The notes under the pieces: generated by a model
The model's database searches: none
What the model was told of the DNA's origin: nothing
The model's input: the letters and a program-made list of their open reading frames with translations, nothing else
Program-made: the position numbers and the translations under genes
Shown here: piece after piece, positions 33,621 to 59,591 of the stretch
Position numbering within the stretch: position 1 is the stretch's first letter
How the letters are laid out: each line of letters opens with the position of its first letter
Assembly: GCF_024223415.1 (NCBI RefSeq)
Contig: NZ_CP100500.1
DNA from: Escherichia coli
Lineage (GTDB): Bacteria; Pseudomonadota; Gammaproteobacteria; Enterobacterales; Enterobacteriaceae
Length of the DNA stretch: 64,000 bases
Strand: one strand, 5' to 3'

Positions 33621-34865
33621 ATGTCTGAAAATGCCACCTTTTCCCCTGAACAGTCATGCCGCAAACATACCGCTGCGCCGGCGAAATCCCTGAGTTTCGT
33701 TGAAGGTGTGTCGATGATTGTCGGCACGAACATTGGCGCAGGTGTACTGTCTGTGGCCTACGCCTCCGGTAAAGCCGGTTTTCTGCCGCTGTTATTCTGG
33801 CTCGTGCTGGTCGGGAGCCTGACCACCATAACCATGCTGTATGTGGCTGAATCGACTTTACGTACCCGTAAACATTTGCAGTTAAGCGGATTGTCACATC
33901 GTTATGTCGGACGCTGTGGCGCGCTGATAATGTTCCTTTCCGTCTGTGTGAACAGCGTTGGCGCTCTGATTGCATATATGAGCGGAAGCGGTAAGCTGCT
34001 GCACTCACTGCTGGGCATTTCTCCAGCTCTGGGTAGCATGTTATTTTTCATTCCCGCCGCAGGAGTGCTTTATCTCGGCCTGAAAGCGATAGGTCGCGGG
34101 GAAAAATTTATAAGTATCGGTATGGTGGTGATGCTCACTATCCTTATCGTCGCCACAATGCTGAAAGACACAACACAAATGCGTTACCTGCTGGATGGCA
34201 ACTGGCTGTATATGGTGCCGGTCTTTAACGTTGTGGCATTTTGTTTCTCGGCACAATATATTGTTCCGGAAATGGCGCGCGGTTTTTCTGATAAACCAGA
34301 AAAATTGCCGAAGGCAATTATGGTCGGGATGGGAATTACCTTCATTCTGCTGGCTCTGGTGCCTATGTCTGTCATAGCACTCAACGGGCTGGACAATATT
34401 TCTGATGTGGCGACCATTTCCTGGGGACGTGCGCTGGGTGAGTGGGCCTTTTTCTCTGCGAATCTGTTTGCTCTTTGCGCGATGCTGACTTCTTACTGGG
34501 GACTTGGTGGCAGTTTTCTGACCAATATCGTTGACCAGTTCAGTCCGGGCGATGACAGCCAGCCTCTAAGACGCTTTCTGTTACTGCTGATCGTTGTCAT
34601 ACCACCGTTTATTCTTGCTTATAGCGGCATGGTATCGTTTGTAAATGCGCTTTATTTTGCGGGGGTCTTCAGTGGCGTGGTCCTGTCTGTTATGCCCATT
34701 CTGATACTGAAAGGGGCGCGCCAGCACGGTGACCTGACACCTGGCTGGACGTGTCCTGCACTCATTATTCATCCGCTACTCCAGAGCTTTATTGTGTTGT
34801 TATATCTCTGTAGCGCTGCGTATGCAATTGCTTCTGCGCTGGGCCATCTCCCGGCAGGCTGGTAA
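33621..34865 (+). CDS. amino-acid permease (HAAAP-type)
   Basis: About 11 predicted transmembrane helices; start placed at MSENATFSPEQ; family assignment moderate. Confidence 0.65.
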   Translation: MSENATFSPEQSCRKHTAAPAKSLSFVEGVSMIVGTNIGAGVLSVAYASGKAGFLPLLFWLVLVGSLTTITMLYVAESTLRTRKHLQLSGLSHRYVGRCGALIMFLSVCVNSVGALIAYMSGSGKLLHSLLGISPALGSMLFFIPAAGVLYLGLKAIGRGEKFISIGMVVMLTILIVATMLKDTTQMRYLLDGNWLYMVPVFNVVAFCFSAQYIVPEMARGFSDKPEKLPKAIMVGMGITFILLALVPMSVIALNGLDNISDVATISWGRALGEWAFFSANLFALCAMLTSYWGLGGSFLTNIVDQFSPGDDSQPLRRFLLLLIVVIPPFILAYSGMVSFVNALYFAGVFSGVVLSVMPILILKGARQHGDLTPGWTCPALIIHPLLQSFIVLLYLCSAAYAIASALGHLPAGW

Positions 34866-35175
34866 ACATAAAGGAAAAGTATTATCGACCTCCTGTATAT
34901 TAAAATTGAGTTAGCATAGTGACGAACAGATTTGGCAGGGCATATGTAGCCTGCTCCCCTCCGGGGTTTAAAGCTCTTTTTGTAAGCAACGGGCGCATGT
35001 GCTGACCCACTCATTTGACATCATGACGGTTTATCTGTACGTCACCATAACGCATTTTATAAGAATGTTTTTTGTCCCATAACAGGTGTCCACTGGTTAA
35101 AAAGGTGGGCACCTGTCGTTACCAGTACTGGCTTAATTGCTACATACGGCTGTCGGTTTACGCTTACTTTCAACT

Positions 35176-35251
35176 TGTGGGTAAGGGGATGGAGTGCGAA
35201 TAAATGATCGAGCTTCGTGCGAATCACTGATCGAATACATCGGAATGCGCA
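35176..35251 (+). repeat. interspersed repeat copy A1 (TGTGGGTAAGGGGATG terminus followed by GATC-containing subrepeats)
   Basis: Closely similar to 59539..59591; subunits of form GTGCGAAT-N-GATCG. Confidence 0.6.
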
Positions 35252-35424
35252 CTCTGAAGCAAACTTAAAACATCTCTGCACCATTCCATGCACGCATAAA
35301 AGTCATTCCGGCATTTCATTTTACATAACATAAACAGAACAATAATAATTACAACAACATTCACACCAGCATTACAGAACACACTCTGTCTGTTGTTATC
35401 ACCAGAAATATCAGGAGTATTTAA

Positions 35425-36591
35425 ATGATTATTTCCTCACCTGCAGATTACAGGGACGCCGCAAAACACAGACTGCCACGCTTTCTTTTTGATTACATAG
35501 ACGGCGGGGCTGTTACTGAAAAAACCATGCATGAAAATATGACCTCTTTATCTTCGGTCAGCCTCCGGCAGCAGGTGCTTTGTGGCGCCGGAGCCCCCGA
35601 ACTGAACACCACCATCCTTGATTCAGAATGGGCCATGCCTGTTGCTCTGGGCCCCGTCGGTGCCACTGGCATGTACGCCCGTCGTGGAGAGGTGCAGGCA
35701 GCCAGAGCGGCCTCAGCAATGAACATCCCTTATACTCTCTCAACCGTCTCCGTCTGCCCGATCGAAGAGGTCGCCGGACACGCTGACGGGCAACTGTGGT
35801 CCCAGTTATACGTCCTTCGGGATCGTGGTTATATGCAAAACGCACTTGAACGCGCCTGGACTGCAGGTATGAAAACCCTGGTATTTACCGTCGACATGCC
35901 TGTGCCGGGCTCCCGGTACAGGGATAACCATTCAGGGATGTCAGGTCCCCACGCCACACTGCGTCAGTATCTTCAGGCCGTTCTTCATCCCCGCTGGGCG
36001 CTGGATGTGGGAATTGCCGGTCGTCCTCTGTCATTTGGTAACATCGAAACGTACACCGGGCATAAAATGTCGATGGATGACTATATGGGCTTTATCAGCA
36101 AAAACTTTGATCCCTCTATTGCATGGAACGATCTCGAATGGATCCGTGATGGCTGGAAAGGTAAACTGATAATAAAAGGGATCCTTGTTCCGGAAGATGC
36201 AAAAAATGCTGTACGGCTTGGCGCGGATGGCATCATTGTCTCCAATCATGGCGGACGTCAGCTTGATGGTGCCATCCCCACGGCCAGGGCATTACCGGCG
36301 ATAGCAGATGCAGTGGGTGATGACATCACGGTACTGGCGGATTCAGGTATTCGTTCCGGTGTGGATGTGGTCCGGATGCTTGCTCTGGGGGCAAAAGGTG
36401 TGCTGCTGGGAAGAGCGTATATTTACGCACTTGCCGCTGCGGGAAAAAAAGGCGTTGAGCACCTGCTCAGACTTTATGCTGAAGATATGAAAGTCACCAT
36501 GACGCTGATCGGCGCTTCTTCTCCCGCTGATATCAGCAGCAGAAATCTTGAATATCTGGAAAAAGAATTCTCCCGACATTCATCATCCTGA
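35425..36591 (+). CDS. FMN-dependent L-lactate dehydrogenase (LldD paralogue)
   Basis: 388 aa [29 protein letters not shown]...; alpha-hydroxy-acid oxidase fold motifs. Confidence 0.88.
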
Positions 36592-36667
36592 CCAAAGTAA
36601 ACCAGGCACATATCCTCCATGCTCCCGGGACAACAGAGCGCAGTTCGGGCACTACAGCCTTACTGGT

Positions 36668-36958
36668 TTACCAGTATGGTCTGCATTCAGAAGGGACCGA
36701 CAACAACTCAGCCAGCTCCGCCACAAGGCGGTTGGTTTCCAGTAATTTCCGCAGTCTCACCGAAAAATAGCCTTGTGCCACATCGTGATTTTCACAGGCT
36801 TCCCTGCGCGTCAGCCCCAGAACAAAATAATCCCTCAGCGCCAGGATAACCTTTTTACTGTTAACGGGAGAAAGCGCTGCAAGTATTTCAAAATGTGCAT
36901 CTGACATGCTTCCGGGCGTGTCATATATCCCGGCAACACGACTGTGATATATCCCCAC
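36668..36958 (-). CDS. PapB/FocB-family fimbrial-type transcriptional regulator (orphan)
   Basis: 96-aa ORF with PGSMSDAHFEILAALSPVNSKKVILALRDYFVLGLTRREACENHDVAQGYFSVRLRKL, resembling PapB. Confidence 0.55.
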   Translation of the reverse strand: MGIYHSRVAGIYDTPGSMSDAHFEILAALSPVNSKKVILALRDYFVLGLTRREACENHDVAQGYFSVRLRKLLETNRLVAELAELLSVPSECRPYW

Positions 36959-37839
36959 GGATACCCCCTGATTACCGCCTGCCCTTATTCCCCGGGAGAC
37001 TGAGAACAGGCTGAGATATAAGTATATTTATATAATATTATATTTCGGATTATTCGCAGAATACTGAAAAAACCGGTCGGGTCAACCGCAGGAAAACAGA
37101 AAGAGCCTGTAATAACGCATAGAAACGATATTTAAAACCAGAACAACCATCAAAAACAGAACATAAAGTCACAAAAACCGTCAAAAACGACCAGGTACTG
37201 CATTTTTAACACCTTTTTTAAATTTTGGTATCTTTACAAAAAACACCACCTGAAAATCATTTATTTAATTAAATAAAGTAAATTGCTTAGCCTGATAAAT
37301 ATTGTTCTGCAACACTCCGGTTCAGGCAGAATGTATTTTCATGGCTTACCCATTCAGGCGTAAATGCGATATTCCGCACATGACAGAGACCACACAAAGA
37401 AAAACAGGCGCAGACAGCCGGATACAGGATAAATTAACACTTCACAATCCGGCATTATTACGCTACAACATTCACGGGCAACTGCCCTTGTAACGAAAAC
37501 TTCCTTAATTTGGGTATTTGTGTGCCGTACGTCTGTGGTGTACGGCTTTTTTTCATTTTTTTATAATTTCTATAAATAAAGATATAATCAATACGTATAT
37601 ACCGTCGTATAAGATCCTTCTTCACCTTTCATTAAAAAGATCCGGAACAAAACAGACGATGAGATTGTGGTACTACCAGATTTACACCCTTACTCCGGAT
37701 AATTCACAAATCCTGAAATTACGACCTTCCTCCCGTTGCCGGACTGAAACAATATGCAGACACTCTGACGGACATGTCAGCAATGCACTCGCTCTCTGCT
37801 GTACAGGTATTACACCATACTTCACCAGGAGGTCTGTTC

Positions 37840-39483
37840 ATGGATATCTGGTCACAGGACTATGATCCCGTCGGAAATATCTGGCTGTCCAGCCTGACAG
37901 CATCGCTTCCCATTCTGTTTTTTTTCTTTGCCCTGATTAAGCTGAAGCTTAAAGGCCATGTTGCTGCCACATGGACTGTCATTATCGCGCTCATCGTGGC
38001 CCTTCTTTTTTATAAGATGCCTCTCACAGCCGCACTCGCTTCCGTGCTCTATGGTTTCTTCTATGGCCTGTGGCCCATTGCCTGGATAATTATTGCCGCA
38101 GTTTTTGTTTATAAAATTTCTGTAAAAACCGGACAGTTCGATATCATTCGCGCTTCAGTGCTGTCCGTTACGCCTGATCAGCGTATTCAGATGCTGATTG
38201 TGGGGTTTGCCTTTGGTGCCTTTCTCGAAGGGGCCGCCGGTTTTGGAGCACCTGTGGCCATAACAGCAGCACTGCTCGTGGTGCTTGGGTTCAGACCACT
38301 TTACGCGGCCGGGTTGTGTCTGATCGTCAATACAGCTCCCGTGGCCTTTGGTGCGATGGGGATCCCCATTCTCGTCGCAGGCCAGGTTACCGGGCTGGAC
38401 AGCTTTGAAATCGGTCAGATGGTTGGTCGTCAGTTACCCTTCCTGACCATTATTGTGTTGTTCTGGATCATGGCAATTATGGATGGCCTGCGTGGCATTA
38501 AGGAAACCTGGCCCGCCGTTCTGGTTGCCGGAGGTTCCTTCGCCATAGCCCAGTTTCTCAGTTCCAACTTTCTGGGCCCGGAGCTCCCGGACATCATATC
38601 ATCACTGGTGTCGCTGGTTTGTCTGACGCTTTTCCTGAAACGCTGGCAGCCTGTACATATTTTTCGCTTTGACAACACCCCGTACCAGAATACGGACTCA
38701 TCACCACTGAGCCGTTCACAGGTGATACGGGCATGGTCGCCATTTCTGTTTCTGACTGCCACGGTGACACTCTGGAGTCTTCCTCCCTTTAAAACACTGT
38801 TCGCACCGGGCGGTACACTGCATGACCTGGTGATTACTGTTCCTGTGCCGTATCTTGATAAACTCATTGCACGTATGCCTCCGGTAGTCAGCGAAGCCAC
38901 TGCTTATGCCGCGGTGTTTAAGTTTGACTGGTTCTCTGCCACCGGTACCGCCATCCTGTTTGCAGCATTGCTCTCTGTGATCTGGCTGAAGATGAAACCG
39001 TCAGATGCTGTCAGCACCTTTGGCAGTACACTGAAAGAACTTGCCCTGCCCGTCTATTCCATCGGCATGGTGCTGGCTTTCGCCTTTATCTCTAATTATT
39101 CGGGGCTTTCATCCACACTTGCCCTGGCTCTGGCACAGACAGGCAGCGCCTTTACGTTCTTCTCACCGTTTCTGGGCTGGCTGGGCGTATTTCTGACGGG
39201 ATCAGATACCTCATCCAATGCATTATTTGCATCACTCCAGGCAACGGCAGCTCATCAGATCGGGGTCTCCGATATTCTGATGGTTGCCGCCAACACCACA
39301 GGGGGAGTAACCGGCAAAATGATTTCTCCACAGTCCATTGCCATCGCCTGCGCAGCAACCGGACTTGTTGGCAAAGAATCAGAACTCTTTCGTTTTACTG
39401 TTAAACACAGCCTGATCTTCACCTGTATTGTGGGAGTCATCACCTCTCTCCAGGCATGGGTATTCACCTGGATGATCCCATGA
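37840..39483 (+). CDS. L-lactate permease (LldP/GlcA family paralogue)
   Basis: Start [39 protein letters not shown]...; LldP-like over full length; track ORF begins 66 nt upstream. Confidence 0.9.
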
Positions 39484-39658
39484 AATATTTGTTGTGCCGG
39501 ATCTTTTCCGGCATGATGATGTGTGTTACAGCCTCTGGCTTATAACACTCTGCAGTAGTGCTGGCTGACGTGACTGCCGGATATTCTGGTTTTCTTAAGT
39601 CACGGATATACTGACGACAGGGTTTCACATTCAATATTCAACTGACAGGTATGTTTAT

Positions 39659-40951
39659 ATGGCACACCGCTACCTGACACGACAGGATCACAGGACCTTA
39701 TCTCTGGCTGCGCTCGGAGGCGCACTTGAATTCTATGACTTCATCATTTTTGTTTTTTTCGCCGCCGTCATTGCTGAGCTCTTTTTCCCGCCGGATATAC
39801 CGGAATGGCTCCGTCAGCTCCAGGCATTTGGTATATTTGCTGCCGGGTACCTGGCACGACCTCTCGGCGGAATAATTCTGGCCCATTTTGGCGATATACT
39901 TGGGCGAAAGAAAATGTTCACCCTGAGTATTTTGCTTATGGCAGTACCGACACTTGTTATCGGTATTTTGCCAACCTACAGCTCTGTGGGTACCCTGGCT
40001 CCTGTGCTGCTTCTTCTGATGCGTCTGCTTCAGGGCGCAGCGATTGGCGGTGAAGTGCCCGGTGCCTGGGTTTTTGTTGCTGAGCATGTACCGGAGCGCC
40101 GAACCGGTATTGCATGCGGAACACTGACAGCAGGTTTAACCGCCGGGATCCTGCTTGGTTCAGTGGTTGCCACACTTGTCAATTCAGTATTGTCTCAGGA
40201 TATTGTTTACGATTACGGCTGGCGATTCCCCTTCCTTCTTGGTGGTGTTTTTGGCCTGGCAGCAATGTACCTGCGCCGCTGGCTGGAGGAAACTCCGGTA
40301 TTTCTGGAAATGAAAGCCAGAAAAAAACTGGCTCAGGAATTACCGGTAAAAGCTGTCGTTTTAAGACATAAAAAAGCTGTTGTGATTTCCATGCTGTTGA
40401 CATGGCTGATATCCGCAGGGATTATTGTGGTGATACTGATGGCACCGGTCTGGTTACAGAAACAGTATGACTTTTCGCCGACAGTCACCTTACAGGCTAA
40501 CAGCATTGCAACTATTATGCTGAGTCTGGGATGCCTGCTGGCCGGTATGGCCATTGATTCTTTTGGTGCCGGAAAAACCTTTATATCAGGCAGTATTCTG
40601 CTTGGATGTTCAGGATGGCTGTTCTATCACACTGTCGGTGAGTATCCTGAAATGTTGTTCTGGCTGTATGGGCTAGCGGGATTCAGTGTGGGCATTGTCG
40701 GGGCCGTCCCTTATGTTCTCGTGCGTATTTTCCCCGCAGAGGTCAGGTTTACCGGCATTTCATTCTCTTACAATGTCGCTTATGCAGTGGTGGGGGGACT
40801 GACTCCTGTTGTGGTCACGATGTTAACGGAAATCTCCCCGATGGCTCCAGCATGGTATGTTATGCTGTTATCACTTGTGGGATCAGGACTGGGAATATGG
40901 TTCTGCAGGGATCCCCGTCTTTTTATCTGTCACGCAGACAAAGACAAATAA
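39659..40951 (+). CDS. MFS transporter (metabolite:H+ symporter family)
   Basis: 430 aa, 12 predicted helices, MFS motif GDILGRKK. Confidence 0.8.
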   Translation: MAHRYLTRQDHRTLSLAALGGALEFYDFIIFVFFAAVIAELFFPPDIPEWLRQLQAFGIFAAGYLARPLGGIILAHFGDILGRKKMFTLSILLMAVPTLVIGILPTYSSVGTLAPVLLLLMRLLQGAAIGGEVPGAWVFVAEHVPERRTGIACGTLTAGLTAGILLGSVVATLVNSVLSQDIVYDYGWRFPFLLGGVFGLAAMYLRRWLEETPVFLEMKARKKLAQELPVKAVVLRHKKAVVISMLLTWLISAGIIVVILMAPVWLQKQYDFSPTVTLQANSIATIMLSLGCLLAGMAIDSFGAGKTFISGSILLGCSGWLFYHTVGEYPEMLFWLYGLAGFSVGIVGAVPYVLVRIFPAEVRFTGISFSYNVAYAVVGGLTPVVVTMLTEISPMAPAWYVMLLSLVGSGLGIWFCRDPRLFICHADKDK

Positions 40952-41260
40952 TGTTTCACCGTTATATAACGGTATCATTCAGTTTTTAAAAATGGCGACA
41001 GGTTAACCTGTCGCCATCCGGTCAGATGCTCACCAGACCGCGCCCCCCATCAGTCTCCATATCCTCCCCCTTGCCCTGCCGGATGATAGCGCCACGCGAC
41101 ATCACCAGGTAGTGGTCCGCCGTAATGTTCCGGTGAAATCGTCCTGACACGTTTCCGGGCTCGTTATCAGCGGTTTTTGCGAATGATCGCCGCCCTGCGA
41201 TGGTTGATTTATTTTATTGCGCCCCGGCGTCTGCCTTGCCAGGTACCGGAGGCGGGCTCT

Positions 41261-41360
41261 GAAGTACTGAGTAGGGTGAGCGCGTCAGGCCACGAAGTAC
41301 TGACACGGGAGTTTGTGGCAGGCAGTGAAGTCCTGACCAGGGTAAGGGAGGGGCTGACGT
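41261..41360. repeat. three degenerate 33-bp tandem direct repeats beginning GAAGT(A/C)CTGA
   Basis: Units start at 41261, 41294 and 41327. Confidence 0.6.
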
Positions 41361-41580
41361 GCATGCCCTGACTGTCAGCCAGGGCGCGTGGTGACTGACT
41401 TTCTCAATAACCCGCTGTCAGGCGCTCAACGCCCGACAGCAGGCCATGGCCCGGTGTGCAAAGACCTGACGGCAGGCCTTGTGTCACCCGGATAAGGTAA
41501 ATCCCTCAAGAGGCAGCAACTCAGCCAGTCGGTCCTCAGGCCACTCCGGCAGGCGCGTCAGTACGTCCGTCAGCCAGGCA

Positions 41581-41692
41581 TGTTGCAAAATCGCATCGTG
41601 TTCGATCGCCGATTCGCATCGTACTCGATCGCTGATTCGCATTGTCCGATCATTGATTCGCATCCTGCAGTCACTCCTGGAATTAACTTTTC
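41581..41692 (+). repeat. repeat copy B1: putative IS21-family left terminal region with three GATC-containing about 21-bp subrepeats
   Basis: Starts TGTTGCAAAATCGCATCG; subunits GATTCGCATCG-N-GATCGC; lies about 150 bp upstream of istA. Confidence 0.5.
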
Positions 41693-41733
41693 TGCATAGT
41701 CTCTACTGCTGAATTTTCTTCTCAGTAGAGGTC

Positions 41734-43269
41734 TTGATGGCTAAAAAGAAAATCTCCCGGAGTTCTATGGAAACCTGTTTAAAAATTCTCCAACTTAAGT
41801 TCGAGCAGCATCAGACAAACCGGACTATCGCACTTACACTGAACATCAGTCCCTCGACTGTTTCCGATGTATTGTCCCGCTTTAAGAACACGTCAATATC
41901 GTGGCCTTTGCCTGAATCGATGACAACTCAACGTCTTGAGGTGCTTATCTTTCCTGGCAAGCAAGCCCCGGAAATGACGCCGGCACTGCCTGACTGGCTC
42001 TACATTGATACCGAACTACGTCGTGTGGGAGTCACTCGTCAGCTCTTATGGATGGAATACAAACATCAGGCTGGTGAATATGCTCTGGGATACTCACAGT
42101 TCTGTCGTCGTTATCTGCACTGGAAAAAAAGCGTGCGTTACTCCATGCGGCAGGAACATCGTGCTGGTGAAAAACTCTTTATCGACTTCTGTGGTCCTAC
42201 AGTCCCTGTTGTTAATCCGGAAACCGGAGAAGAACGCAGAGTGGCCATCTTTGTAGCCGTGATGGGAGCATCTAACTATACCTATGTTGAAGCGTGCGAA
42301 GGTCAGGATCTGATGTCGTGGCTAAACGCCAACAGCCGATGTCTGACCTTCCTTGGTGGTGTACCAAAACTGCTGATCCCGGATAACCTTAAAAGTGCTG
42401 TCAAAAAAGTCGATCGCTACGAACCGGTCATCAATGAGAGTTACCAAGCATTCGCAGAGCACTACAATACAGTGATACTCCCAGCAAGACCAAGAAAACC
42501 AAAGGATAAAGCGAAAGCCGAAACGGCTGTACTTATCGTCGAACGATGGCTGCTTGCCCGCATTCGCAACGAGACCTTCTTTACACTCAGGAGCCTGAAC
42601 AGTCGTCTACGCGAGTTGTTGGTAGAGCTGAATAACCGTCCCATGAAAGGATACGGCAACCAGACGCGTGCAGAGCGTTTTGCCCTGCTGGATGCCCCTG
42701 CATTATCAGCCCTGCCAGTATCAGAGTATGAGTTCGCTGAATACAAAACGGTGAAAGTTGCACCTGATTACCATGTTGAATACGCCCACCACTGGTACTC
42801 AGTACCTCATGAACTGATCGGACAACGGTTATCCCTGAAAGCCACTCAGACAGTGATCCAACTCTGGCATCAGGGGCAATGCGTGGCACAACATCCGCGC
42901 AGCCTCCATGAGTACAAGCACACGACCAACCCTCTACACATGCCTGCAGCACATCAGGCACACAGCAGATGGACACCGGAAAGTCTTCAGGAAGCAGCCA
43001 GAAAGATAGATCCTTATACAGCAATGACAGTGGATAGCATGCTGAACAGTAAACGTCATCCTGAACAGGCTTACCGGACAGTCCTGGGGCTGCTGAGCCT
43101 GAAAAAACACTATGGTCGTGAGCGTCTGGAAAAAGCCTGTCATGTTGCCCGGGAGTGCAGAACGTCGGAAAGAAGGTTCATCGAAAACCTTCTGCGTAAT
43201 AACAGGGAAAACCTTTCCCTCCGGAAAAAGAGAGGCAGACGGAGGGAAACGTATCAAAAATCCAGTTAA
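41734..43269 (+). CDS. istA: IS21-family transposase IstA (orphan; no istB downstream)
   Basis: 511 aa with N-terminal helix-turn-helix and DDE integrase core; sequence typical of IstA. Confidence 0.85.
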   Translation: MMAKKKISRSSMETCLKILQLKFEQHQTNRTIALTLNISPSTVSDVLSRFKNTSISWPLPESMTTQRLEVLIFPGKQAPEMTPALPDWLYIDTELRRVGVTRQLLWMEYKHQAGEYALGYSQFCRRYLHWKKSVRYSMRQEHRAGEKLFIDFCGPTVPVVNPETGEERRVAIFVAVMGASNYTYVEACEGQDLMSWLNANSRCLTFLGGVPKLLIPDNLKSAVKKVDRYEPVINESYQAFAEHYNTVILPARPRKPKDKAKAETAVLIVERWLLARIRNETFFTLRSLNSRLRELLVELNNRPMKGYGNQTRAERFALLDAPALSALPVSEYEFAEYKTVKVAPDYHVEYAHHWYSVPHELIGQRLSLKATQTVIQLWHQGQCVAQHPRSLHEYKHTTNPLHMPAAHQAHSRWTPESLQEAARKIDPYTAMTVDSMLNSKRHPEQAYRTVLGLLSLKKHYGRERLEKACHVARECRTSERRFIENLLRNNRENLSLRKKRGRRRETYQKSS

Positions 43270-43395
43270 TACGCGTGATGACTGCCTGCATCACGTTTTC
43301 ACCCGTCATGATTTTCTTTTTCACGGCCTCTCCGTCATCTTCAGTTCACACCTTTGTATAAAAAACAGGGCGTGATACACATCACGCCCTGCGCT

Positions 43396-44391
43396 TCAGT
43401 GGCTGATTTTTTTCAGCTGTTCTTCACTCAGCCCCGTAATTTTCATGATTGTCTGGAAACCCATCCCTTCAGCCAGCATATTACGCGCGGTTTCCAGTTT
43501 GCCTTCCAGTTGTCCTTCGAGTCGACCTTCGGCACGGCCTTCCATTCTGCCTTCCATTCTGCCTTCCAGCTTACCACGCTCCATACCCTGCGCCATGCCC
43601 AGCGCAATGCCTTCCTCGCGTCCGCTCTGCTTCAGTTGTTCAGCCAGTGTCATTATGTTGCCCTCGTGCTGTGGCAGCCGCTCCGCCAGCGTCTGCAAAA
43701 ACCTTACCGTCACATGTTCACTGCCGTTCAGCAGATAGTGGAACAGAACCTGCGCCAGCTCTTCATTCAGCGAAGTCTGTATCAGCTGAACCAGCCTGTC
43801 CATCTGCAGCATGATGTCGCGGCTGCGGCTGTGTTTCATCAGCAGCGTCAGTGCCCCCATACGACGGTGCTGCATTATTTCATCGTCATCCAGTACCGTC
43901 ACGTCCACCAGGTGGAACGGTCTGGTGTAGATTTTAGCAGCAAGTTCCGGATTTCTGAAACACTCCAGCCAGTTCATGCTGTACGGGTACGGACTCCGCT
44001 CACCGTGGTAGAATAACAGCGGGATCACCAGCGGCAGCTCATGGTGCTGTTCAAAGTGACGCTGCATCGCCGCCACCGCATATCTGAGCATCCTGAACGC
44101 CATAAACGCGTTTTCCGTGCTCTGGTGTTCCGCGAGGCAATAAATATACCCCTCCTCACCGCTGACGGTCTTCATGCTGAACAGCGCATCGCACGCATAC
44201 TGTTTCAGATCCTGGTCCACAAAGGTACAGGGCTCCAGCCGCAGCGTTGACAGATCACACAGCTGCCGGTATTCCGCCGGAAGATGCAGTTCAACAAAAT
44301 CACGGGCCACCTCTGCGGAGGCCATAAACGCCCTGAAGGCAGCATCATGCGGCGTGGGGGTATTTTTCTCTTTCCTGCTGCTCACCGTCAT
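43396..44391 (-). CDS. Rpn-family recombination-promoting nuclease / putative transposase (YhgA-like)
   Basis: 331 aa; PD-(D/E)xK-like N-terminal region; C-terminal tandem GRMEG/GRAEG/GRLEG/GQLEG repeats. Confidence 0.75.
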   Translation of the reverse strand: MTVSSRKEKNTPTPHDAAFRAFMASAEVARDFVELHLPAEYRQLCDLSTLRLEPCTFVDQDLKQYACDALFSMKTVSGEEGYIYCLAEHQSTENAFMAFRMLRYAVAAMQRHFEQHHELPLVIPLLFYHGERSPYPYSMNWLECFRNPELAAKIYTRPFHLVDVTVLDDDEIMQHRRMGALTLLMKHSRSRDIMLQMDRLVQLIQTSLNEELAQVLFHYLLNGSEHVTVRFLQTLAERLPQHEGNIMTLAEQLKQSGREEGIALGMAQGMERGKLEGRMEGRMEGRAEGRLEGQLEGKLETARNMLAEGMGFQTIMKITGLSEEQLKKISH

Positions 44392-44506
44392 CCACTCAAC
44401 TGTCCGGTATCACTCTTTTTTGCAATCATACCAGCCGTAACCATTTCAGTCACCGGTGCAGCCTCCGCCTGAAACCTGTACCGGAGAGAATAACATCGCG
44501 AATGGC

Positions 44507-45061
44507 TTAGCGGATGATGCCGGCCATCACAGGCCAGGATAACGAAAGGCACGCGTTTCTGAATGCCCTGAGTGGCTCAGCGCCTTCAGGTGTGGCTGCA
44601 CGCACCACCCTGTAACAGCATACCACCGTACACTGCCCTTCTGGTGTGAGTGTGGTGCCGGCCTGTTGCAGTAACGCCACCAGGAGCGAATCAGCTGTTA
44701 GGCCGGATCCCGGTGGGCAAATGAGATCCTGGCTGATCAGCAACAGACAACGTATCCCGGTGCTGTCTGTCGTTTCCCGCAGCCAGCGTAACACCACCGG
44801 CAGTAACGGATATCCGGCATGGCTTCGCTGATTCAGCTGTCTGTAAAATGCCCGGTAAAACGCATGAATCTGCCCCCCGTCACGATTTCCTCCTGTTGAA
44901 TGAAGTGTGAACTGAACGGCCAGCAGACGCGGCCAGTGATCCACCGCCTGCTGAATAAAACGCCGGATTTCCACCGGCTCTGAAAGTACGGTTTCGGTTA
45001 TCTGCACGATTTGCTCTCTTTGAATGTTTCTGAACCGGTGTCGGTGCACAGGGAAACGCAT
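44507..45061 (-). CDS. YagK/YfjJ-family (inovirus Gp2-like) protein, divergent copy lacking the His-hydrophobic-His motif
   Basis: HWPRLLAVQFTLHSTG resembles the family N-terminal motif, but the HxH position reads IRCLLLISQD. Confidence 0.45.
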   Translation of the reverse strand: MRFPVHRHRFRNIQREQIVQITETVLSEPVEIRRFIQQAVDHWPRLLAVQFTLHSTGGNRDGGQIHAFYRAFYRQLNQRSHAGYPLLPVVLRWLRETTDSTGIRCLLLISQDLICPPGSGLTADSLLVALLQQAGTTLTPEGQCTVVCCYRVVRAATPEGAEPLRAFRNACLSLSWPVMAGIIR

Positions 45062-45125
45062 ACCCACACCACCACGCATACCCGGTCACAGCGTCACCGC
45101 CGTAAACTGCGACCGGGAACGCGCA

Positions 45126-45548
45126 TTACAGCAACGAATTGTCCGTCCCGGTATCTTCCATCAGGGGCTCCCGGCGTTCCCTGCTGTACAGCCCGCTTCC
45201 ACACCCCGGGCAGACCTTTTCTCCTTCATAGCTTTCATCACACATCACACAAAACCACCTTCTTACCTTCACCGCATAATCAGGCACCAGCATGCCCTGC
45301 AGATACACACGACGGGATTCTTTCTCTGCCGGGTCAAGCCAGGTACATCGCAGGAGAACTTTCTCAGAGACCGTCATCTGGTCATGTTCAAACCACGGTG
45401 GTTGTCCGTCCGTGCCCCGCTTAAGCGTTAACGGGCAACCACAGGACACACAGCACAAAACGTCCTGGCGGTTGTGCTCCGCAGCTTCTTTCGCGGTGAC
45501 AAAATGGCCCTTGCTGTCATTCGCCATATAGCAGTTCAGAATTCGCAT
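45126..45548 (-). CDS. zinc-ribbon protein, paralogue B
   Basis: CCVSCGCPLTLKRGTDGQPPWFEH and C-terminal CVMCDESYEGEKVCPGCG; start placed at MRILNCY. Confidence 0.5.
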   Translation of the reverse strand: MRILNCYMANDSKGHFVTAKEAAEHNRQDVLCCVSCGCPLTLKRGTDGQPPWFEHDQMTVSEKVLLRCTWLDPAEKESRRVYLQGMLVPDYAVKVRRWFCVMCDESYEGEKVCPGCGSGLYSRERREPLMEDTGTDNSLL

Positions 45549-45562
45549 ATCCCCCCCTGAGC

Positions 45563-45949
45563 TTAAGCTGTCCGGGAAATACTGAAGCGCCCGGTCCGGC
45601 AGTGTGTGCAGTACTGCTCCCCATAATAATCGTGGTGACATTGTCTGCAGTGCCGGCTGGCTTTACGCACCACGGGTAAGGCATCCGGTACAAACTGCCG
45701 TAAGCGTTTAATCAGTTGCACCTCCCTGCGCTCAGGCTGTACGTAAGGACACTGCTGACCGTGCTCCGTCAGCCCTTCGTCAGTGTGTTCAAACCAGGGG
45801 CGTTCAGTGTTGTATTGCGGGTGGTATCTGAGCGCACTGCCGCAAAGGTGGCAGGTGTAGCGGTCGTAAGGTGCAGTCTGTGCGGTACGGGCACCGGTCA
45901 GACGTCCGTTGCCATCAAACGCGAGAAAAGATTTTGCGTACATCGTCAT
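45563..45949 (-). CDS. zinc-ribbon protein, paralogue A
   Basis: CHLCGSALRYHPQYNTERPWFEH and C-terminal CRQCHHDYYGEQYCTHC. Confidence 0.5.
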   Translation of the reverse strand: MTMYAKSFLAFDGNGRLTGARTAQTAPYDRYTCHLCGSALRYHPQYNTERPWFEHTDEGLTEHGQQCPYVQPERREVQLIKRLRQFVPDALPVVRKASRHCRQCHHDYYGEQYCTHCRTGRFSISRTA

Positions 45950-46154
45950 ACTCCGGGGCCGCCAGACGACACGCAGGCGTCAGCCGTCCCTTTACGGGCA
46001 GCGTGGACAGAGTGTGAATGGCGGTACAGTTAAGGGTGGAAAATGGGTGGGCTGTTGTTACAGCACTGTGGGTGTCACATCATGGTGTACCAACGTAAAA
46101 AATAATCAGCAGGATGTCGCCGGACATCAGCCCGTCCTGCTGGTTTTGCCGGGC

Positions 46155-46724
46155 TCAGCCCCGACTGCAGCCGAAATTACGTTCACCGGTGCCACAGGCT
46201 TTGGTATGCTCCTTCGCCAGATAGTCAGCCCGTTCCAGTAGCTGCTGAAAGCCGGCGTCATCATCACGCGTCAGCCACAGTGCGGGATGTTCCGGAAAGG
46301 TCGCCAGCGTGGCATGGTATCCGGCATCCACACCCAGGGCACTGCACCACGCCTGTTTAATCATCCCGGCCAGTGACCCCGGAACGCGGTAATCGCCGGC
46401 ACGGCACCAGGTATCCCGGTTGACCAGCAACAGCAGGTGATAATGTTTTTTACCTTTACGCTCCCCGAACTCCCGGGCCCAGGCGTAATGCAGGGTTGTG
46501 GGATGTACGCGTTTACCTTCACGGCGCCTGCGTTTCTGGTAAGCGTAAATTCGGGCTTTCAGGGCATTGACGAAGCGGGATATCACCGCAGCATCGGTCT
46601 CTGCGGGGTGCTCCGGCAGACGCAGATCCACCTGGAGCGCTGTCAGGCGGGGATGCACCGCCAGTGCCTGCTGCACCGTCTCACGGATACGCTTCTGCCA
46701 GAAGCTGTTGTACTTGTGTATCAT
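46155..46724 (-). CDS. YagK/YfjJ-family (inovirus Gp2-like, putative HUH-type) protein
   Basis: Motifs HPRLTALQVDLRLPEH and KKHYHLLLLVNRD. Confidence 0.65.
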   Translation of the reverse strand: MIHKYNSFWQKRIRETVQQALAVHPRLTALQVDLRLPEHPAETDAAVISRFVNALKARIYAYQKRRRREGKRVHPTTLHYAWAREFGERKGKKHYHLLLLVNRDTWCRAGDYRVPGSLAGMIKQAWCSALGVDAGYHATLATFPEHPALWLTRDDDAGFQQLLERADYLAKEHTKACGTGERNFGCSRG

Positions 46725-47167
46725 GGTTGAATCTCCTCCGTGACTCACAGACGTTACTTAAGGAAGAAGATGAGCAACAGGCTACACGTACGATAAAAGA
46801 CATTTGGGTCATGAATACACGATCTGGATGGACGACATAAAGGTGATGATCTGCTCAAACCAACCAGCGTTTATGATCGATGCGACAGACAGAAGGAATG
46901 AACTACTACAATAAATAAAATCTGTCGCTGTGTGGCAAGGAAGATTTTCTTCAGGAGTGCTGGCTTATTGGGATTTTTAACACAATTTAGAGTGAGTTCA
47001 ATCAGCCACAAATCTGGATTCCTATGTCCGGATTTTTACCACAATCCCCTTATTGATTTTTATTAATCATTCACAATCTGTGATCTAGCTCGATTGCGAT
47101 TTGTATTTGACTTAATATAATCACCATGATTGTATTAAATCAAATTATAACAACAGGCGTAAAAACC

Positions 47168-48121
47168 ATGAACATTAAAAAATCAATAGAACGAGTACCC
47201 GGCGGTATGATGGTTGTACCACTGGTGATTGGCGCCATTATCAATACCTTTTCACCACAAGTGCTGGAGATCGGCGGGTTCACCACCGCGTTGTTCAAAA
47301 ACGGCGCTGCTCCTCTGATTGGTGCCTTCCTGCTCTGTATGGGAGCAGGGATCAGCGTGAAAGCCGCACCTCGGGCGTTGTTTCAGGGGGGGGCAATAAC
47401 CCTGACCAAACTGCTTGTCGCCATTGCGATTGGCCTAGGTGTTGAGCATCTGTTCGGTCAGGAAGGTATCTTCGGATTGAGCGGCGTGGCAATCATTGCG
47501 GCAATGAGTAACTCAAACGGCGGACTTTACGCGGCGCTAGTGGGAGAGTTTGGCAACGAACGCGATGTCGGCGCTATTTCAATTCTATCTCTGAATGATG
47601 GACCGTTCTTTACAATGATCGCGCTGGGAGCTGCTGGTATGGCGAACATACCAATCATAGCGCTGGTCGCAGTGCTGATTCCGCTGGTGATAGGGATGCT
47701 CCTCGGTAACCTTGATCCCAACATGCGTGACTTCCTGACCAAAGGTGGACCACTATTGATCCCGTTCTTCGCGTTTGCGCTGGGTGCGGGGATCAACCTT
47801 GAAATGCTTCTGCAGGGTGGGCTGGCTGGGATTCTGCTTGGCGTACTGACCACCTTTATCGGCGGTTTCTTTAACATTCGCGCCGACCGTCTGGCTGGGG
47901 GAACCGGTATTGCCGGCGCGGCGGCTTCCAGCACAGCCGGAAATGCGGTAGCGACGCCGCTGGCGATTGCTCAGGCAGACCCTTCGCTGGCTGAAGTGGT
48001 TACCTCTGCCGCACCGCTGATTGCCGCATCGGTGATCACAACCGCAATTCTGACGCCAGTCCTAACCTCTCGGGTCGCCAAAAATCGGGCGCGTCAGATC
48101 TCTGAGGAGAAAAAAGTATGA
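47168..48121 (+). CDS. 2-keto-3-deoxygluconate permease (KdgT family)
   Basis: MNIKKSIERVPGGMMVVPLVIGAIINTF...; polytopic membrane protein. Confidence 0.8.
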   Translation: MNIKKSIERVPGGMMVVPLVIGAIINTFSPQVLEIGGFTTALFKNGAAPLIGAFLLCMGAGISVKAAPRALFQGGAITLTKLLVAIAIGLGVEHLFGQEGIFGLSGVAIIAAMSNSNGGLYAALVGEFGNERDVGAISILSLNDGPFFTMIALGAAGMANIPIIALVAVLIPLVIGMLLGNLDPNMRDFLTKGGPLLIPFFAFALGAGINLEMLLQGGLAGILLGVLTTFIGGFFNIRADRLAGGTGIAGAAASSTAGNAVATPLAIAQADPSLAEVVTSAAPLIAASVITTAILTPVLTSRVAKNRARQISEEKKV

Positions 48122-49389
48122 AGATGATCGTTATCGCCGACGACTTTACGGGTTCTAACGATACTGGCGTGCAGTTGGCGAAGAAAGGAGCTCGCACGGA
48201 AGTTTTGCTAACGCCGGAGCAAAAGCCTTCGCGTCGCACGGATGTACTGGTGCTCAACACTGAAAGTCGTGCGGTGCCGGCCGCACAGGCAGCGAAAGCG
48301 GTAACGCATGCTCTGGCTCCCTGGTGCAAAGGAGAGATGCTCCCGCTGGTATACAAGAAAATCGACTCCACATTTCGCGGCAACGTCGGCGCGGAAGTGA
48401 CGGCAGCGATGCGAGCCGCTAAACGGACTCTGGCAGTGATCGCTGCGGCGATCCCAGCTGCAGGACGCACAACCCGTAACGGATTATGCCTGGTCAACGG
48501 TACGCCTCTACTGGAAACCGAGTTTGCCAGCGATCCGAAAACGCCGGTTTTCTCCTCGCGCATTGCGGAACTGATCGCGCTACAAAGCGATATCCCGGTA
48601 CATGACGTGTCGCTTGATGACGTGCGACGCGGACAGCTCAGCGCCCTTCTTAAAGCTTTTGCAGCCCAGGGGGAATGCATGGTGGTAGTCGATGCGGTGG
48701 AAGATCACGACCTGTCTCTGATTACCCAGGCTATTTGTGAACAGGCTACATTTCCTCTACTGGTCGGTGCGGCAGGACTGGCGAATGCGCTACCGGTCAG
48801 AATGTTCATGCAGGAGAAGAAGGCTCTGCCAGTGCTAGTAGTTGCAGGATCGATGAGCGAAGCCACCCGGCGGCAGGTTGAAAAAGCGCTCACCCAGGCA
48901 CACGCCAACGTGGTGGACATTGATGTCTCACGACTGATTTCCTCGAAGGCCGAACAGGAAATAGCCTCTGTGGTGGAACAGGCCAGCGTGTTGCTCAGTC
49001 ACCAGAAACACACGATTCTTCGCACCAGCCGTAGTGCGGATGACCGACTGATGATCGATGCTCTGTGTACTGAAGCAGGCGTAGGCCGCCAACAGCTTGG
49101 CGAGATGCTCAGCCAATGTCTAGGGATCATTACACTGCGCATTATCGAACAGGCGCGTATTGGCGGCCTGTTCCTGACCGGAGGAGATATTGCCACTGCT
49201 GTTGCCAGTGCGCTTGGTGCTGAAGGCTATCGCATCCAGAACGAGGTCGCCCCATGCATTCCCTGCGGGATGTTTGTGAACAGCGAAATCGACGATCTTC
49301 CGGTGATCACGAAAGCTGGCGGATTCGGTTCAGACAGCACCCTTTGTGATGCACTTTATTTTATTGAGGAGATGTACAGTGGTAACTAA
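48118..49389 (+). CDS. four-carbon acid sugar kinase family protein (YgbK/OtnK-like)
   Basis: MKMIVIADDFTGSNDTGVQLAKKGARTEVLL N-terminus. Confidence 0.8.
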   Translation: MKMIVIADDFTGSNDTGVQLAKKGARTEVLLTPEQKPSRRTDVLVLNTESRAVPAAQAAKAVTHALAPWCKGEMLPLVYKKIDSTFRGNVGAEVTAAMRAAKRTLAVIAAAIPAAGRTTRNGLCLVNGTPLLETEFASDPKTPVFSSRIAELIALQSDIPVHDVSLDDVRRGQLSALLKAFAAQGECMVVVDAVEDHDLSLITQAICEQATFPLLVGAAGLANALPVRMFMQEKKALPVLVVAGSMSEATRRQVEKALTQAHANVVDIDVSRLISSKAEQEIASVVEQASVLLSHQKHTILRTSRSADDRLMIDALCTEAGVGRQQLGEMLSQCLGIITLRIIEQARIGGLFLTGGDIATAVASALGAEGYRIQNEVAPCIPCGMFVNSEIDDLPVITKAGGFGSDSTLCDALYFIEEMYSGN

Positions 49390-50362
49390 AACAATAGCGA
49401 TTACGATGGGCGATCCGGCAGGTATCGGTCCAGAAATAATTGTCAAGGCACTTTGTGAAAATGAACTTAGCGGCGCACCGCTGGTAGTGGTGGGATGCCT
49501 ACAGACCCTACAACGTTTGCAAACCAAAGGACTGGCAGAAGGAGTGACTTTTCGCGCAATTGACAATGTCACGCAGGCGCGATTTTCACAGGGCGTGATT
49601 CACGTAATCGATGAGCCGCTGGCACAGCCCCAAGCGCTGGAGCCAGGTAAAGTGCAGGCCGAGGCGGGAGATCTGGCCTACCGTTGCGTAAAACGTGCGA
49701 CGGAGTTGGCACTGAAAGGTGATGTACACGCCATCGCCACTGCGCCGCTGAATAAAGAAGCACTACATCAGGCGGGACATTATTATCCGGGACATACCGA
49801 ACTGCTGGCGACGTTGACCGGAAGCCGTGACTATGCGATGGTGCTTTACACCGACAAGCTGAAGGTGATTCACGTTTCGACCCATATTGCGTTACGCAAG
49901 TTTCTCGACACTCTCAACAGGCAACGCGTGGAGACTGTTATAGGCATCGCGGATCACTTCCTTAAGCGTATTGGCTTAGCCCAACCGCGCATCGCCGTAG
50001 CCGGGATCAATCCCCATGCAGGCGAAAACGGTCTGTTTGGCGATGAAGAAATTCGCATTGTATCGCCAGCCATTGAAAACATGAGGGCGAAAGGAACAGA
50101 CGTTTTCGGACCATGTCCACCGGATACCGTGTTTTTGCAGGCATACGAGGGTCATTATGACATGGTGGTGGCGATGTACCACGATCAGGGACATATTCCG
50201 CTCAAACTGCTTGGATTCTATGATGGCGTGAATATCACCGCCGGTCTGCCGTTTATTCGTACCTCTGCTGATCACGGGACTGCGTTTGATATTGCCTGGA
50301 CGGGCAAAGCAAAATCTGAGAGCATGGTCATATCGATTAAACTGGCAATGCAACTGGCATAA
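49379..50362 (+). CDS. PdxA-family NAD-dependent dehydrogenase (4-hydroxythreonine-4-phosphate dehydrogenase-like)
   Basis: KTIAITMGDPAGIGPEI...HTELLA...DHGTAFDIAWTGKA; GTG start with GAGGAG Shine-Dalgarno assumed. Confidence 0.8.
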   Translation: MVTKTIAITMGDPAGIGPEIIVKALCENELSGAPLVVVGCLQTLQRLQTKGLAEGVTFRAIDNVTQARFSQGVIHVIDEPLAQPQALEPGKVQAEAGDLAYRCVKRATELALKGDVHAIATAPLNKEALHQAGHYYPGHTELLATLTGSRDYAMVLYTDKLKVIHVSTHIALRKFLDTLNRQRVETVIGIADHFLKRIGLAQPRIAVAGINPHAGENGLFGDEEIRIVSPAIENMRAKGTDVFGPCPPDTVFLQAYEGHYDMVVAMYHDQGHIPLKLLGFYDGVNITAGLPFIRTSADHGTAFDIAWTGKAKSESMVISIKLAMQLA

Positions 50363-59263: not shown

Positions 59264-59327
59264 TGCTGTAAAATCGCATCGTGCCGATCACTGATTCGCA
59301 TCGCATCATCCAGCACATTTACTTTTC
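59264..59327 (+). repeat. repeat copy B2 (TGCTGTAAAATCGCATCGTG...GATC...GATTCGCATCG)
   Basis: Similar to 41581..41692. Confidence 0.55.
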
Positions 59328-59538
59328 CCGGTGTTGAAAGGAAGTATTTGTGGCAGCTTGTTGAAAATACAACTCCACCGGTCAATCCCCAGGATATAAA
59401 GACAGCAACGATAATGCAGGCCAGCCCCGGAGAATAACCTGCAAGAAAAAATGATCCCCCACCCGGTATTAAGGCTGTATGGGCAGGTTAACACGGTGAT
59501 TACTGTCAGTTAATACCATCACGCCGGCCCCAAAAACC

Positions 59539-59591
59539 TGTGGGCAAGGGGATGTCGTGCGGATCACTGAGCAAATTCATCGGAATGCGCA
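59539..59591 (+). repeat. repeat copy A2 (TGTGGGCAAGGGGATG...)
   Basis: Similar to 35176..35251 but lacking one 23-bp subunit; abuts the helicase stop codon. Confidence 0.55.

Follow-up and report, generated by a model that had tools for sequence, protein, structure and literature searches.

The closest described relatives of the locus analysed here are the IS21-family insertion sequences. An autonomous member encodes an IstA transposase with an N-terminal helix-turn-helix (HTH), a DDE (rve) core and a C-terminal beta-barrel, and has the gene of the AAA+ helper ATPase, istB, directly 3' of istA. It is bounded by a left terminal inverted repeat that starts with 5'-TG and carries multiple repeated IstA-binding units, and by a contiguous right terminal inverted repeat ending in CA-3', and direct target-site duplications of 4-8 bp flank the two ends. 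IstA acts as a tetramer bound to the repeated sites and synapses both ends (PMC10122671). It is inactive until target-bound IstB decamers engage its beta-barrel and DDE domain; the integration that it catalyses requires IstB, and IstA mutants unable to contact IstB do not integrate; the same work leaves the extreme C-terminus of IstA without a defined role (PMC11208146). The ISSso4-like subgroup, to which the solved IS5376 IstA is only distantly related in sequence, adds a C-terminal extension of about 110 residues that ends in HENLRGPxYYH, for a total length of 505-523 aa. ISSso4 itself, known from Shigella sonnei pSS_046 and from E. coli, is a complete element of 2,638 bp in pSS_046, where a target duplication of 7 bp (CTCAGGC) marks its limits; it starts with TGCAAAATGGCATCTGAATCGATCGC and comprises istA, istB and a right end. 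The closest intact relative that we found is an unnamed IS21-family element on Logan contig SRR30535858_441214, hereafter L008. Its istB encodes 251 aa and lies 20 nt past istA, and the contig stops short of the right terminus.

The window, a 64,000-nucleotide stretch of E. coli contig NZ_CP100500.1, contains a relic of this subgroup next to an Rpn-family gene. The features of the locus are as follows, with the evidence in brackets.

41484-41583, minus strand: 3' fragment of an IS66-family tnpC, the insertion target (annotation of E. coli 135 and AR_0085)
41584-41733, plus strand: IS21-family left end and leader to istA (alignment with the ISSso4 left end; repeat units)
41734-43212, plus strand: istA-derived part of the ORF, codons 1-493 (NF033546, rve, Mu-transpos_C_2; nucleotide homology to intact elements)
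43202-43213, no strand: putative deletion junction zone, ACAGGGAAAACC (IS21 alignments end at 43213, the ibrA-like alignment starts at 43202)
43213-43269, plus strand: foreign ORF tail of 18 codons, LSLRKKRGRRRETYQKSS, and stop, antisense of the ibrA-like fragment (no homolog aligned; DNA match of about 75% to PAPS-reductase genes)
43214-43324, minus strand: 5' fragment of an ibrA-like PAPS-reductase gene, about 37 codons to the SFSGGK P-loop (tblastn, DNA matches)
43365-43392, minus strand: intrinsic terminator of rpn, a 12-bp stem followed by a T-run (terminator scan)
43396-44391, minus strand: Rpn-family (YhgA-like, Transposase_31) gene (PF04754, E 6.5e-74; TIGR01784, 173.7 bits for a cutoff of 52.1)

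The istA ORF (41734-43269, plus strand) has 511 codons, with a TTG start at 41734 and an ATG right behind it at 41737. It matched the NCBIfam model NF033546, 'IS21 family transposase', with 287.8 bits (cutoff 160, E 1.1e-85), and both Pfam rve and Mu-transpos_C_2 were found on it. Its istA-derived codons 1-493 cover the HTH, the DDE catalytic core, the beta-barrel and most of the C-terminal extension, so that all three domains expected of an autonomous IstA are present. The structures of IS5376 IstA (PDB 8q4d/8b4h) aligned with residues 132-385 of the relic protein (E 3e-13), placing D151/D217/E263 opposite the triad D124/D187/E233 of the solved protein. This numbering agrees with the IS5376 residues quoted in the structural papers, namely K126, N188, K190, Y224 and the 'catalytic E233' (PMC11208146, PMC10122671). 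DDE core, beta-barrel and catalytic triad are thus shared with the IS21/IS5376 system, which has an IstB partner, whereas the relic wholly lacks one. The mechanism of IstA tetramer and IstB decamer applies to the intact ancestor of the relic (PMC10122671, PMC11208146).

The first-pass annotation had called this IstA full length, a description that did not withstand alignment. When the ORF was aligned with ten intact relatives of 505-523 aa, to which it is 72-76% identical, agreement extended to ...RRFIENLLRNNREN at residue 493 (nucleotide ~43213). Beyond this residue the relic reads LSLRKKRGRRRETYQKSS and stops, and no homolog aligns there. The intact relatives carry 24-29 further residues ending in (L/V)EHENLRGPxYYH, in which the motif columns are nearly invariant across the 11 aligned sequences; the motif is absent from the relic, unlike L008, which keeps its last 24 istA codons including EHENLRGPDYYH. 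The same limit was seen in DNA. Homology to three intact elements, L008 (74.7% identity), ISSso4 (71.9%) and the element of Salmonella pRM11060-2 (71.7%), stops at 43213-43215, at a point that lies 74-87 nt short of the istA stop in these elements, where istB starts within about 20 nt of that stop. Alignment to complete IS21-family elements, proposed as a check of the truncation, therefore confirmed it but placed it inside istA, at codon 493, and not past an intact istA.

The DNA beyond this point belongs to another gene. Positions 43202-43317 (plus strand) matched the 5' end of annotated 'phosphoadenosine phosphosulfate reductase' genes, which adjoin IbrB-like genes in E. coli, with about 75% DNA identity. 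The minus-strand translation of the fragment is VKKKIMTGENVMQAVITRINWIFDTFPSVCLSFSGGK, and residues 6-42 of the IbrA-like protein WP_073519904 matched it in tblastn with 62% identity over 37 residues (E 1.5e-10). Judged from these alignments, the 'IstA' ORF ends with 18 codons that are antisense of an ibrA-like fragment. The IS sequence meets the first ~37 ibrA-like codons head-on at about 43213, just downstream of rpn, and an ibrA-like gene formerly sat directly downstream of rpn. The overlap of the two sets of alignments at 43202-43213 (ACAGGGAAAACC) may be a short microhomology of uncertain size at the crossover; neither true parent was found. On the ibrA-like side, 43205-43400 had no megablast match in complete E. 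coli genomes, the relatives reaching only ~75%.

The Rpn gene carries the PD-(D/E)XK Transposase_31 domain. It had been described as an oppositely oriented gene beginning about 120 bp after the istA stop; its orientation and distance hold (the gap is 126 bp), but the two genes are convergent and it is the end of rpn that faces istA. The 'spacer' between them consists of the ibrA-like gene fragment and the rpn terminator, and rpn is a neighbour of the IS, outside it.

The left end proposed for the element proved to be real, with a start at 41584 instead of 41581. It begins with the terminal TG at 41584-41585, reads TGCAAAATCGCATCG, and consists of this TG, one terminal AAAATCGCAT half-unit, three GATCNNNGATTCGCAT units and the leader that runs to 41733. 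The three units are perfect and in tandem within 41604-41663 (41604-41619, 41627-41642 and 41648-41663), the sequence 5' of istA being TGCAAAATCGCATCGTGTTC-GATCGCCGATTCGCAT-...-GATCGCTGATTCGCAT-...-GATCATTGATTCGCAT. A search of the window for the GATCNNNGATTCGCAT pattern with up to 2 mismatches returned 6 matches for 1.8 expected, a number reached in 0 of 100 shuffles, and 3 of the 6 are the perfect tandem units of the relic. A promoter scan of the left end found no consensus sigma-70 site and was uninformative. The left terminus is nearly identical to that of ISSso4, TGCAAAATGGCATCT, with which it aligns, and both elements have multiple GATC-N-TT(G/C)GCAT units, an IstA of about 511 aa and the same domain order. 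Repeat units are fewer at the left end of the relic and of the TTCGCAT type, as in L008; those of ISSso4 are of the TTGGCAT type.

Two lines of evidence place the terminus at 41584. The delimited ISSso4 starts with TGCAAAATGGCATCTGAATCGATCGC, which identifies the TG at 41584-41585 as the end of the element. Independent support came from an empty site: E. coli AR_0085 has the same island without the relic, and its sequence follows that of the window without a difference as far as 41583 (...GGCATGT), past which its IS66-family tnpC fragment runs on uninterrupted. The same 59-aa ORF of this tnpC fragment carries Pfam DDE_Tnp_IS66_C in five other assemblies (L013-L017). These comparisons showed that the element inserted into an IS66-family tnpC remnant (41484-41583, minus strand).

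The absence of istB, claimed from the start, was borne out. We ran tblastn with the IstB proteins of L008, ISSso4 and pRM11060-2 over all 64 kb and found no istB directly 3' of istA or, in any of the six frames, elsewhere in the window, so that no overlooked ORF weakens the claim. The sole matches were weak (55130-55498, best E 1.5e-5) and fell within a sigma-54 activator, on its AAA+ domain (Pfam Sigma54_activat, E 1.4e-60). Likewise, blastn with the right halves of the three intact elements returned nothing adjoining the relic, and no right terminal inverted repeat ending in CA-3' lies between 43213 and rpn. This search for a right terminal repeat did return two IS21-type right ends elsewhere in the window, at 35192-35251 (reading ...GTGCGAATCACTGATCGAATACATCGGAATGCGCA) and at 59555-59591, with the terminus to the right in both. 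They belong to other, independent copies, and neither is the missing end of the relic. No target duplication is readable at the relic, its right flank being deleted. The IS-derived sequence hence amounts to 1,630 bp, from 41584 to about 43213, or the left 62% of an element; relative to ISSso4 (~2.64 kb), about 1.0 kb is missing, namely the 3' end of istA, istB (756 bp) and a right end of ~100 bp. The relic, left with a single end and lacking IstB, is non-autonomous and cannot transpose. Loss of the C-terminal tail is an additional probable defect, unproven because the role of the extreme C-terminus is undefined (PMC11208146). The observation made on the sequence was thus partly confirmed, and its interpretation as a truncated element, probably immobile alone, is supported by the loss of istB, of the right terminal repeats and of the IstA C-terminal tail.

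In order to place the relic among known elements, we compared it with its nearest relatives. Its IstA is about 72-73% identical to that of ISSso4 and 77% (BLASTP) or 76% (alignment) identical to that of L008, and the DNA is 72-76% identical to ISSso4 over 41603-43215 and 74.7% identical to L008 over 41591-43213. Two elements are by convention (ISfinder) the same IS species at roughly 95% amino acid or 90% nucleotide identity and above. The relic falls well below this with ISSso4 and, with an IstA identity of only about 72%, represents a distinct IS species. The istA part was absent from the complete RefSeq E. coli genomes of our collection, in which the best match was ISSso4 at about 76% nucleotide identity. 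An intact copy of the same species was not found among 5.8 billion clustered proteins either, the best non-self IstA being 77% identical; two candidates (P0068 and P0021) were rejected, both being of ISSso4 type and no closer. The species appears to be known solely as this relic. The 510-aa form of the protein goes under the name 'transposase for ISEc12' in one source, a loose label. The element of that name is active in E. coli, makes 5-bp target duplications and is present in complete genomes (PMC10711316). We rejected this identification because nothing close to the relic istA turned up in the complete genomes that have ISEc12, where nucleotide identity reached at most 76%.

As a relic, the sequence is widespread. 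The protein read from M12 of the ORF (P0121) occurs in identical form on 545 contigs and 554 index blocks of E. coli. In the 90% cluster that contains it (52 members), all proteins that were read, 15 of the 40 listed, have at most 510 aa, and four members that were inspected are the same relic, one of them with a tail altered by an IS3-family element. The junction of istA and ibrA recurs in eight other sequences (L006, L007 and L012-L017) and, with an added IS3-family insertion, in L018-L021; the relic ORF differs from L006/L007 by 1 nucleotide, and two independent assemblies (L012 and L016) are 99.99% identical to 34767-50270 of the window, over 15.5 kb. Other strains carry ISEc23 at the istA start, flanked by the 8-bp duplication TGATGGCT (41735-41742), and in strain 135 all sequence past that ISEc23 is gone. 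In a further strain set an IS3-family element sits in the 3' end of the relic and gives the variant tail ...ENLLRCTGNSGHYHLFFF; a protein that had seemed a longer form of the relic product (P0124) is this insertion and was rejected as such. The relic is transmitted by vertical descent and serves in turn as a landing pad for later insertion sequences, and these insertions indicate that the ORF enjoys no protection.

We consider it very likely that the locus is the dead remnant of an ISSso4-like IS21-family insertion sequence. Simple transposition would first have brought a complete element of ~2.64 kb into the IS66 fragment. At a later time an illegitimate deletion, possibly across a short microhomology, would have joined istA codon 493 to ibrA codon ~37, with loss of the last 24-29 istA codons, the whole of istB, the right terminal repeats and the flanking DNA up to that ibrA codon. 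The istA frame would have run on by chance through 18 antisense codons to a stop, giving an ORF that looks full length. We infer this deletion and did not observe it, since the parental junction sequences were not found. Adjacent deletions mediated by an IS begin at an IS terminus; the junction here is internal to istA, so the IS itself would not have made the deletion. Comparison with AR_0085 complicates the ancestry. By blastn the window equals AR_0085 up to 41583/41586 and again from 43369, and 41587-43368 (1,782 bp) stands in place of 663 bp made up of a further part of the IS66 fragment, a RelE fragment and DNA without assignment. The ibrA fragment is missing from AR_0085. Insertion and a single deletion therefore do not suffice to derive the window from an ancestor like AR_0085; the common ancestor was unlike both strains.

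The open frame, with DDE triad and beta-barrel intact, could alternatively encode an orphan IstA that is active in trans, using the IstB of another IS21-family copy and acting on its own left end and a solo right end, of which the window offers two in the correct orientation (35192-35251 and 59555-59591, the latter 16 kb downstream). We regard this as very unlikely. The window has no istB and the conserved C-terminal motif is gone; the right-end relic at 59555-59591 is just 37 bp long and has one repeat unit mutated; the gene is disrupted in other strains, which tolerate ISEc23 and IS3-family insertions there; and the nearest relatives that have an IstB are 72-77% identical, which makes cross-reactivity uncertain. 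In a broader form of the idea, the product, IstA(1-493) plus 18 residues, might be expressed as an orphan transposase or DNA-binding protein that still recognises IS21-type repeats, of which the window holds three further relic sets (35192-35251, 59267-59305 and 59555-59591), and rearranges the island in trans, or as a co-opted regulator. We give it a very slim chance.

If selection had kept the IstA remnant for some use to the host, DNA binding or regulation at IS21-type repeats for instance, this would account for an identical 500/510-aa product, almost invariant, on hundreds of E. coli contigs. An open, nearly invariant ORF is compatible with recency and, on that evidence alone, also with retention. 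However, the flanking non-coding DNA is equally near-identical over the 15.5 kb compared above, which points to clonal recency and not to purifying selection. Domestication, which we hold to be highly improbable, is further opposed by a minimum of three independent disruptions or losses in other strains and by a C-terminal tail that is accidental antisense read-through.

No better placed is a reading that takes the right end at 35192-35251 and the left end at 41584 for the inner ends of a pair of directly repeated IS21-type copies around a 6.3-kb segment (lldD-papB-lldP-MFS), an arrangement classically produced by IS21-mediated cointegration, or a composite transposon, with the istA relic as the right-hand copy. 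Order and orientation fit, with right end, segment, and left end with istA in succession, and the repeats of the right-end relic and of the left end fall into one subgroup, the TTCGCA type; the right-end relic also resembles the right end of ISSso4 (81%, E 1e-9). But AR_0085 is 100% identical over 34800-35500, right-end relic included, and yet has neither left end nor istA at 41584, indicating that the two ends were acquired independently and that the event at 41584 was a simple insertion. The presence of one end and absence of the other in this strain largely refutes the reading, which we judge extremely doubtful. That the istA/ibrA junction is an assembly chimera, an idea to which nothing but its abruptness lends weight, is scarcely credible, the same junction being found in independent assemblies of different projects.

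On our preferred reading, the dead remnant of an ISSso4-like element, the locus is nothing out of the ordinary: hundreds of E. coli contigs bear it under the annotation 'IS21 family transposase'. Insertion sequences in decay are a common sight in the genomic islands of E. coli, and the relic carries little biological weight. It resembles other such remains in having one end and a truncated transposase gene among IS fragments, which here are of IS66, ISEc23, IS3 and IS4 types. Its sole oddity relative to them is that the truncated ORF is kept open by an antisense gene fragment and mimics a full-length protein. The annotation is misleading in this respect: the 500/510-aa product seems intact, yet it is a chimera with 18 antisense-derived residues, which means that calls of 'intact transposase' based on length can be wrong. 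With its ISEc23 and IS3-family insertion polymorphisms, the locus is also usable as a lineage marker.

The solo IS21-type ends led to a separate observation on an IS4-family element. At 59267-59305 a left-end fragment opens a relic of 325 bp, which has the right end at 59555-59591 as its close and includes the 3' end of such an element, and the IS4-family right inverted repeat (...ACTTGTGGGTAAGGG(G/T)ATG) precedes both right-end relics of the window. A scan of genome contigs for the IS4-type inverted repeat CTTGTGGGTAAGGGKATG was uninformative, with 11 chance matches in unrelated phyla, and a lexical search of the literature on IS4-family targeting of IS21 ends returned nothing relevant. A complete copy of 1,490 bp, encoding a Tn5-like transposase of 471 aa with a match to the NCBIfam model transpos_IS4_3, lies inside an ISSso4 left end in E. 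coli Ceylon31, flanked by the 9-bp duplication TTGGCATTC. In nine of ten contexts the element abuts IS21-family repeat units in the fixed register GATC-N5-[9-bp duplication]. The insertions fall in different units and in both orientations, and a second IS21-family member, whose repeats are of the ATAACAT type, is also hit (duplication ATAACATCG). The IS4-family element appears to target specifically the IstA-binding repeats of IS21-family ends, a reading that we rate as more likely than that of an orphan IstA recognising these repeats or co-opted by the host. Both junctions in the window keep the GATC-N5 register.

Nine of the ten sampled contexts placed the 1,490-bp IS4-family (Tn5-like) element within IS21-family terminal repeat units; its copies lie at 2138-3627 in comparison sequence L010 and at 2434-3923 in each of L034-L043, and the window holds IS4-family/IS21-type junctions at 35191/35192 and 59554/59555. 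Insertions into the IS21-family repeats displayed a constant register, GATC-N5-[9-bp duplication], with duplications TTGGCATTC, TTGGCATCA and ATAACATCG, and were found in both orientations, in various repeat units and in two distinct IS21-family members as hosts. This pattern suggests that the IS4-family element specifically targets the IstA-binding repeats of the IS21 family. A lexical literature search returned nothing relevant on IS4-family targeting of IS21-family ends.

Three IS termini are stacked at 35140-35251, in the space between an aromatic amino-acid permease gene and lldD, and this region was 100% conserved across AR_0085, an E. coli strain with an empty site at the IS21-family relic, E. 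coli strain 135 and comparison sequence L012:
33534-34865, aromatic amino-acid permease gene, one flank
35140-35167, IS66-type terminal repeat, reading ...CGGTTTACGCTTAC
35173-35191, right inverted repeat of an IS4-family element
35192-35251, solo IS21-family right end of 60 bp, terminating in CGGAATGCGCA
35425-36591, lldD, other flank

A composite relic of 325 bp occupies 59267-59591, where the 3' part of an IS4-family element lies between two IS21-type end fragments; its coverage did not exceed 70% in any complete E. coli genome:
59267-59305, IS21-type left-end fragment, TGTAAAATCGCATCGTGCCGATCACTGATTCGCATCG
59306-59554, IS4-family element remnant: final ~76 codons plus the right inverted repeat
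59555-59591, IS21-type right-end fragment of 37 bp

The truncated IS21-family relic carrying istA varied between strains, as seen at 41735-41742 and 43190-43200 in comparisons with L001, L006, L007, L013-L015, L017 and L018-L021. Some strains carry ISEc23 (IS66 family) at the istA start codon, with an 8-bp target duplication, TGATGGCT, corresponding to window 41735-41742; in strain 135 the DNA past the ISEc23 insertion is deleted, and a third strain group has an IS3-family element within the 3' end of the relic.

Immediately left of the IS66-family fragment, in the 60% GC stretch at 41250-41345, a GAAGTACTGA-like motif occurs three times at intervals (ctgaagtactgag, cacgaagtactgac and cagtgaagtcctgac). 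These copies may represent subterminal repeats belonging to the IS66-family element.

In its C-terminal part, the Rpn-family protein (43396-44391, -) carries EGR-type repeats in a row, GKLEGRMEGRMEGRAEGRLEGQLEGKLE, encoded around 43440-43560. Protein sizes of 309, 325, 327, 329 and 331 aa were observed between strains, a spread suggesting that the repeats are polymorphic in number.

Downstream of rpn, a small group of island genes occupies 44507-46748 (-):
44507-45079, -, UCP030791-family ORF
45126-45641, -, DUF7828 and zinc-ribbon ORF 1, overlapping its paralogue ORF 2
45563-45949, -, DUF7828 and zinc-ribbon ORF 2
46155-46748, -, YagK/YfjJ_C, inovirus Gp2-like ORF

Between this group and kdgT (47126) the GC content falls to 38%. 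In place of the DUF7828 pair, other strains have two other genes, one AlpA-like and one hypothetical.
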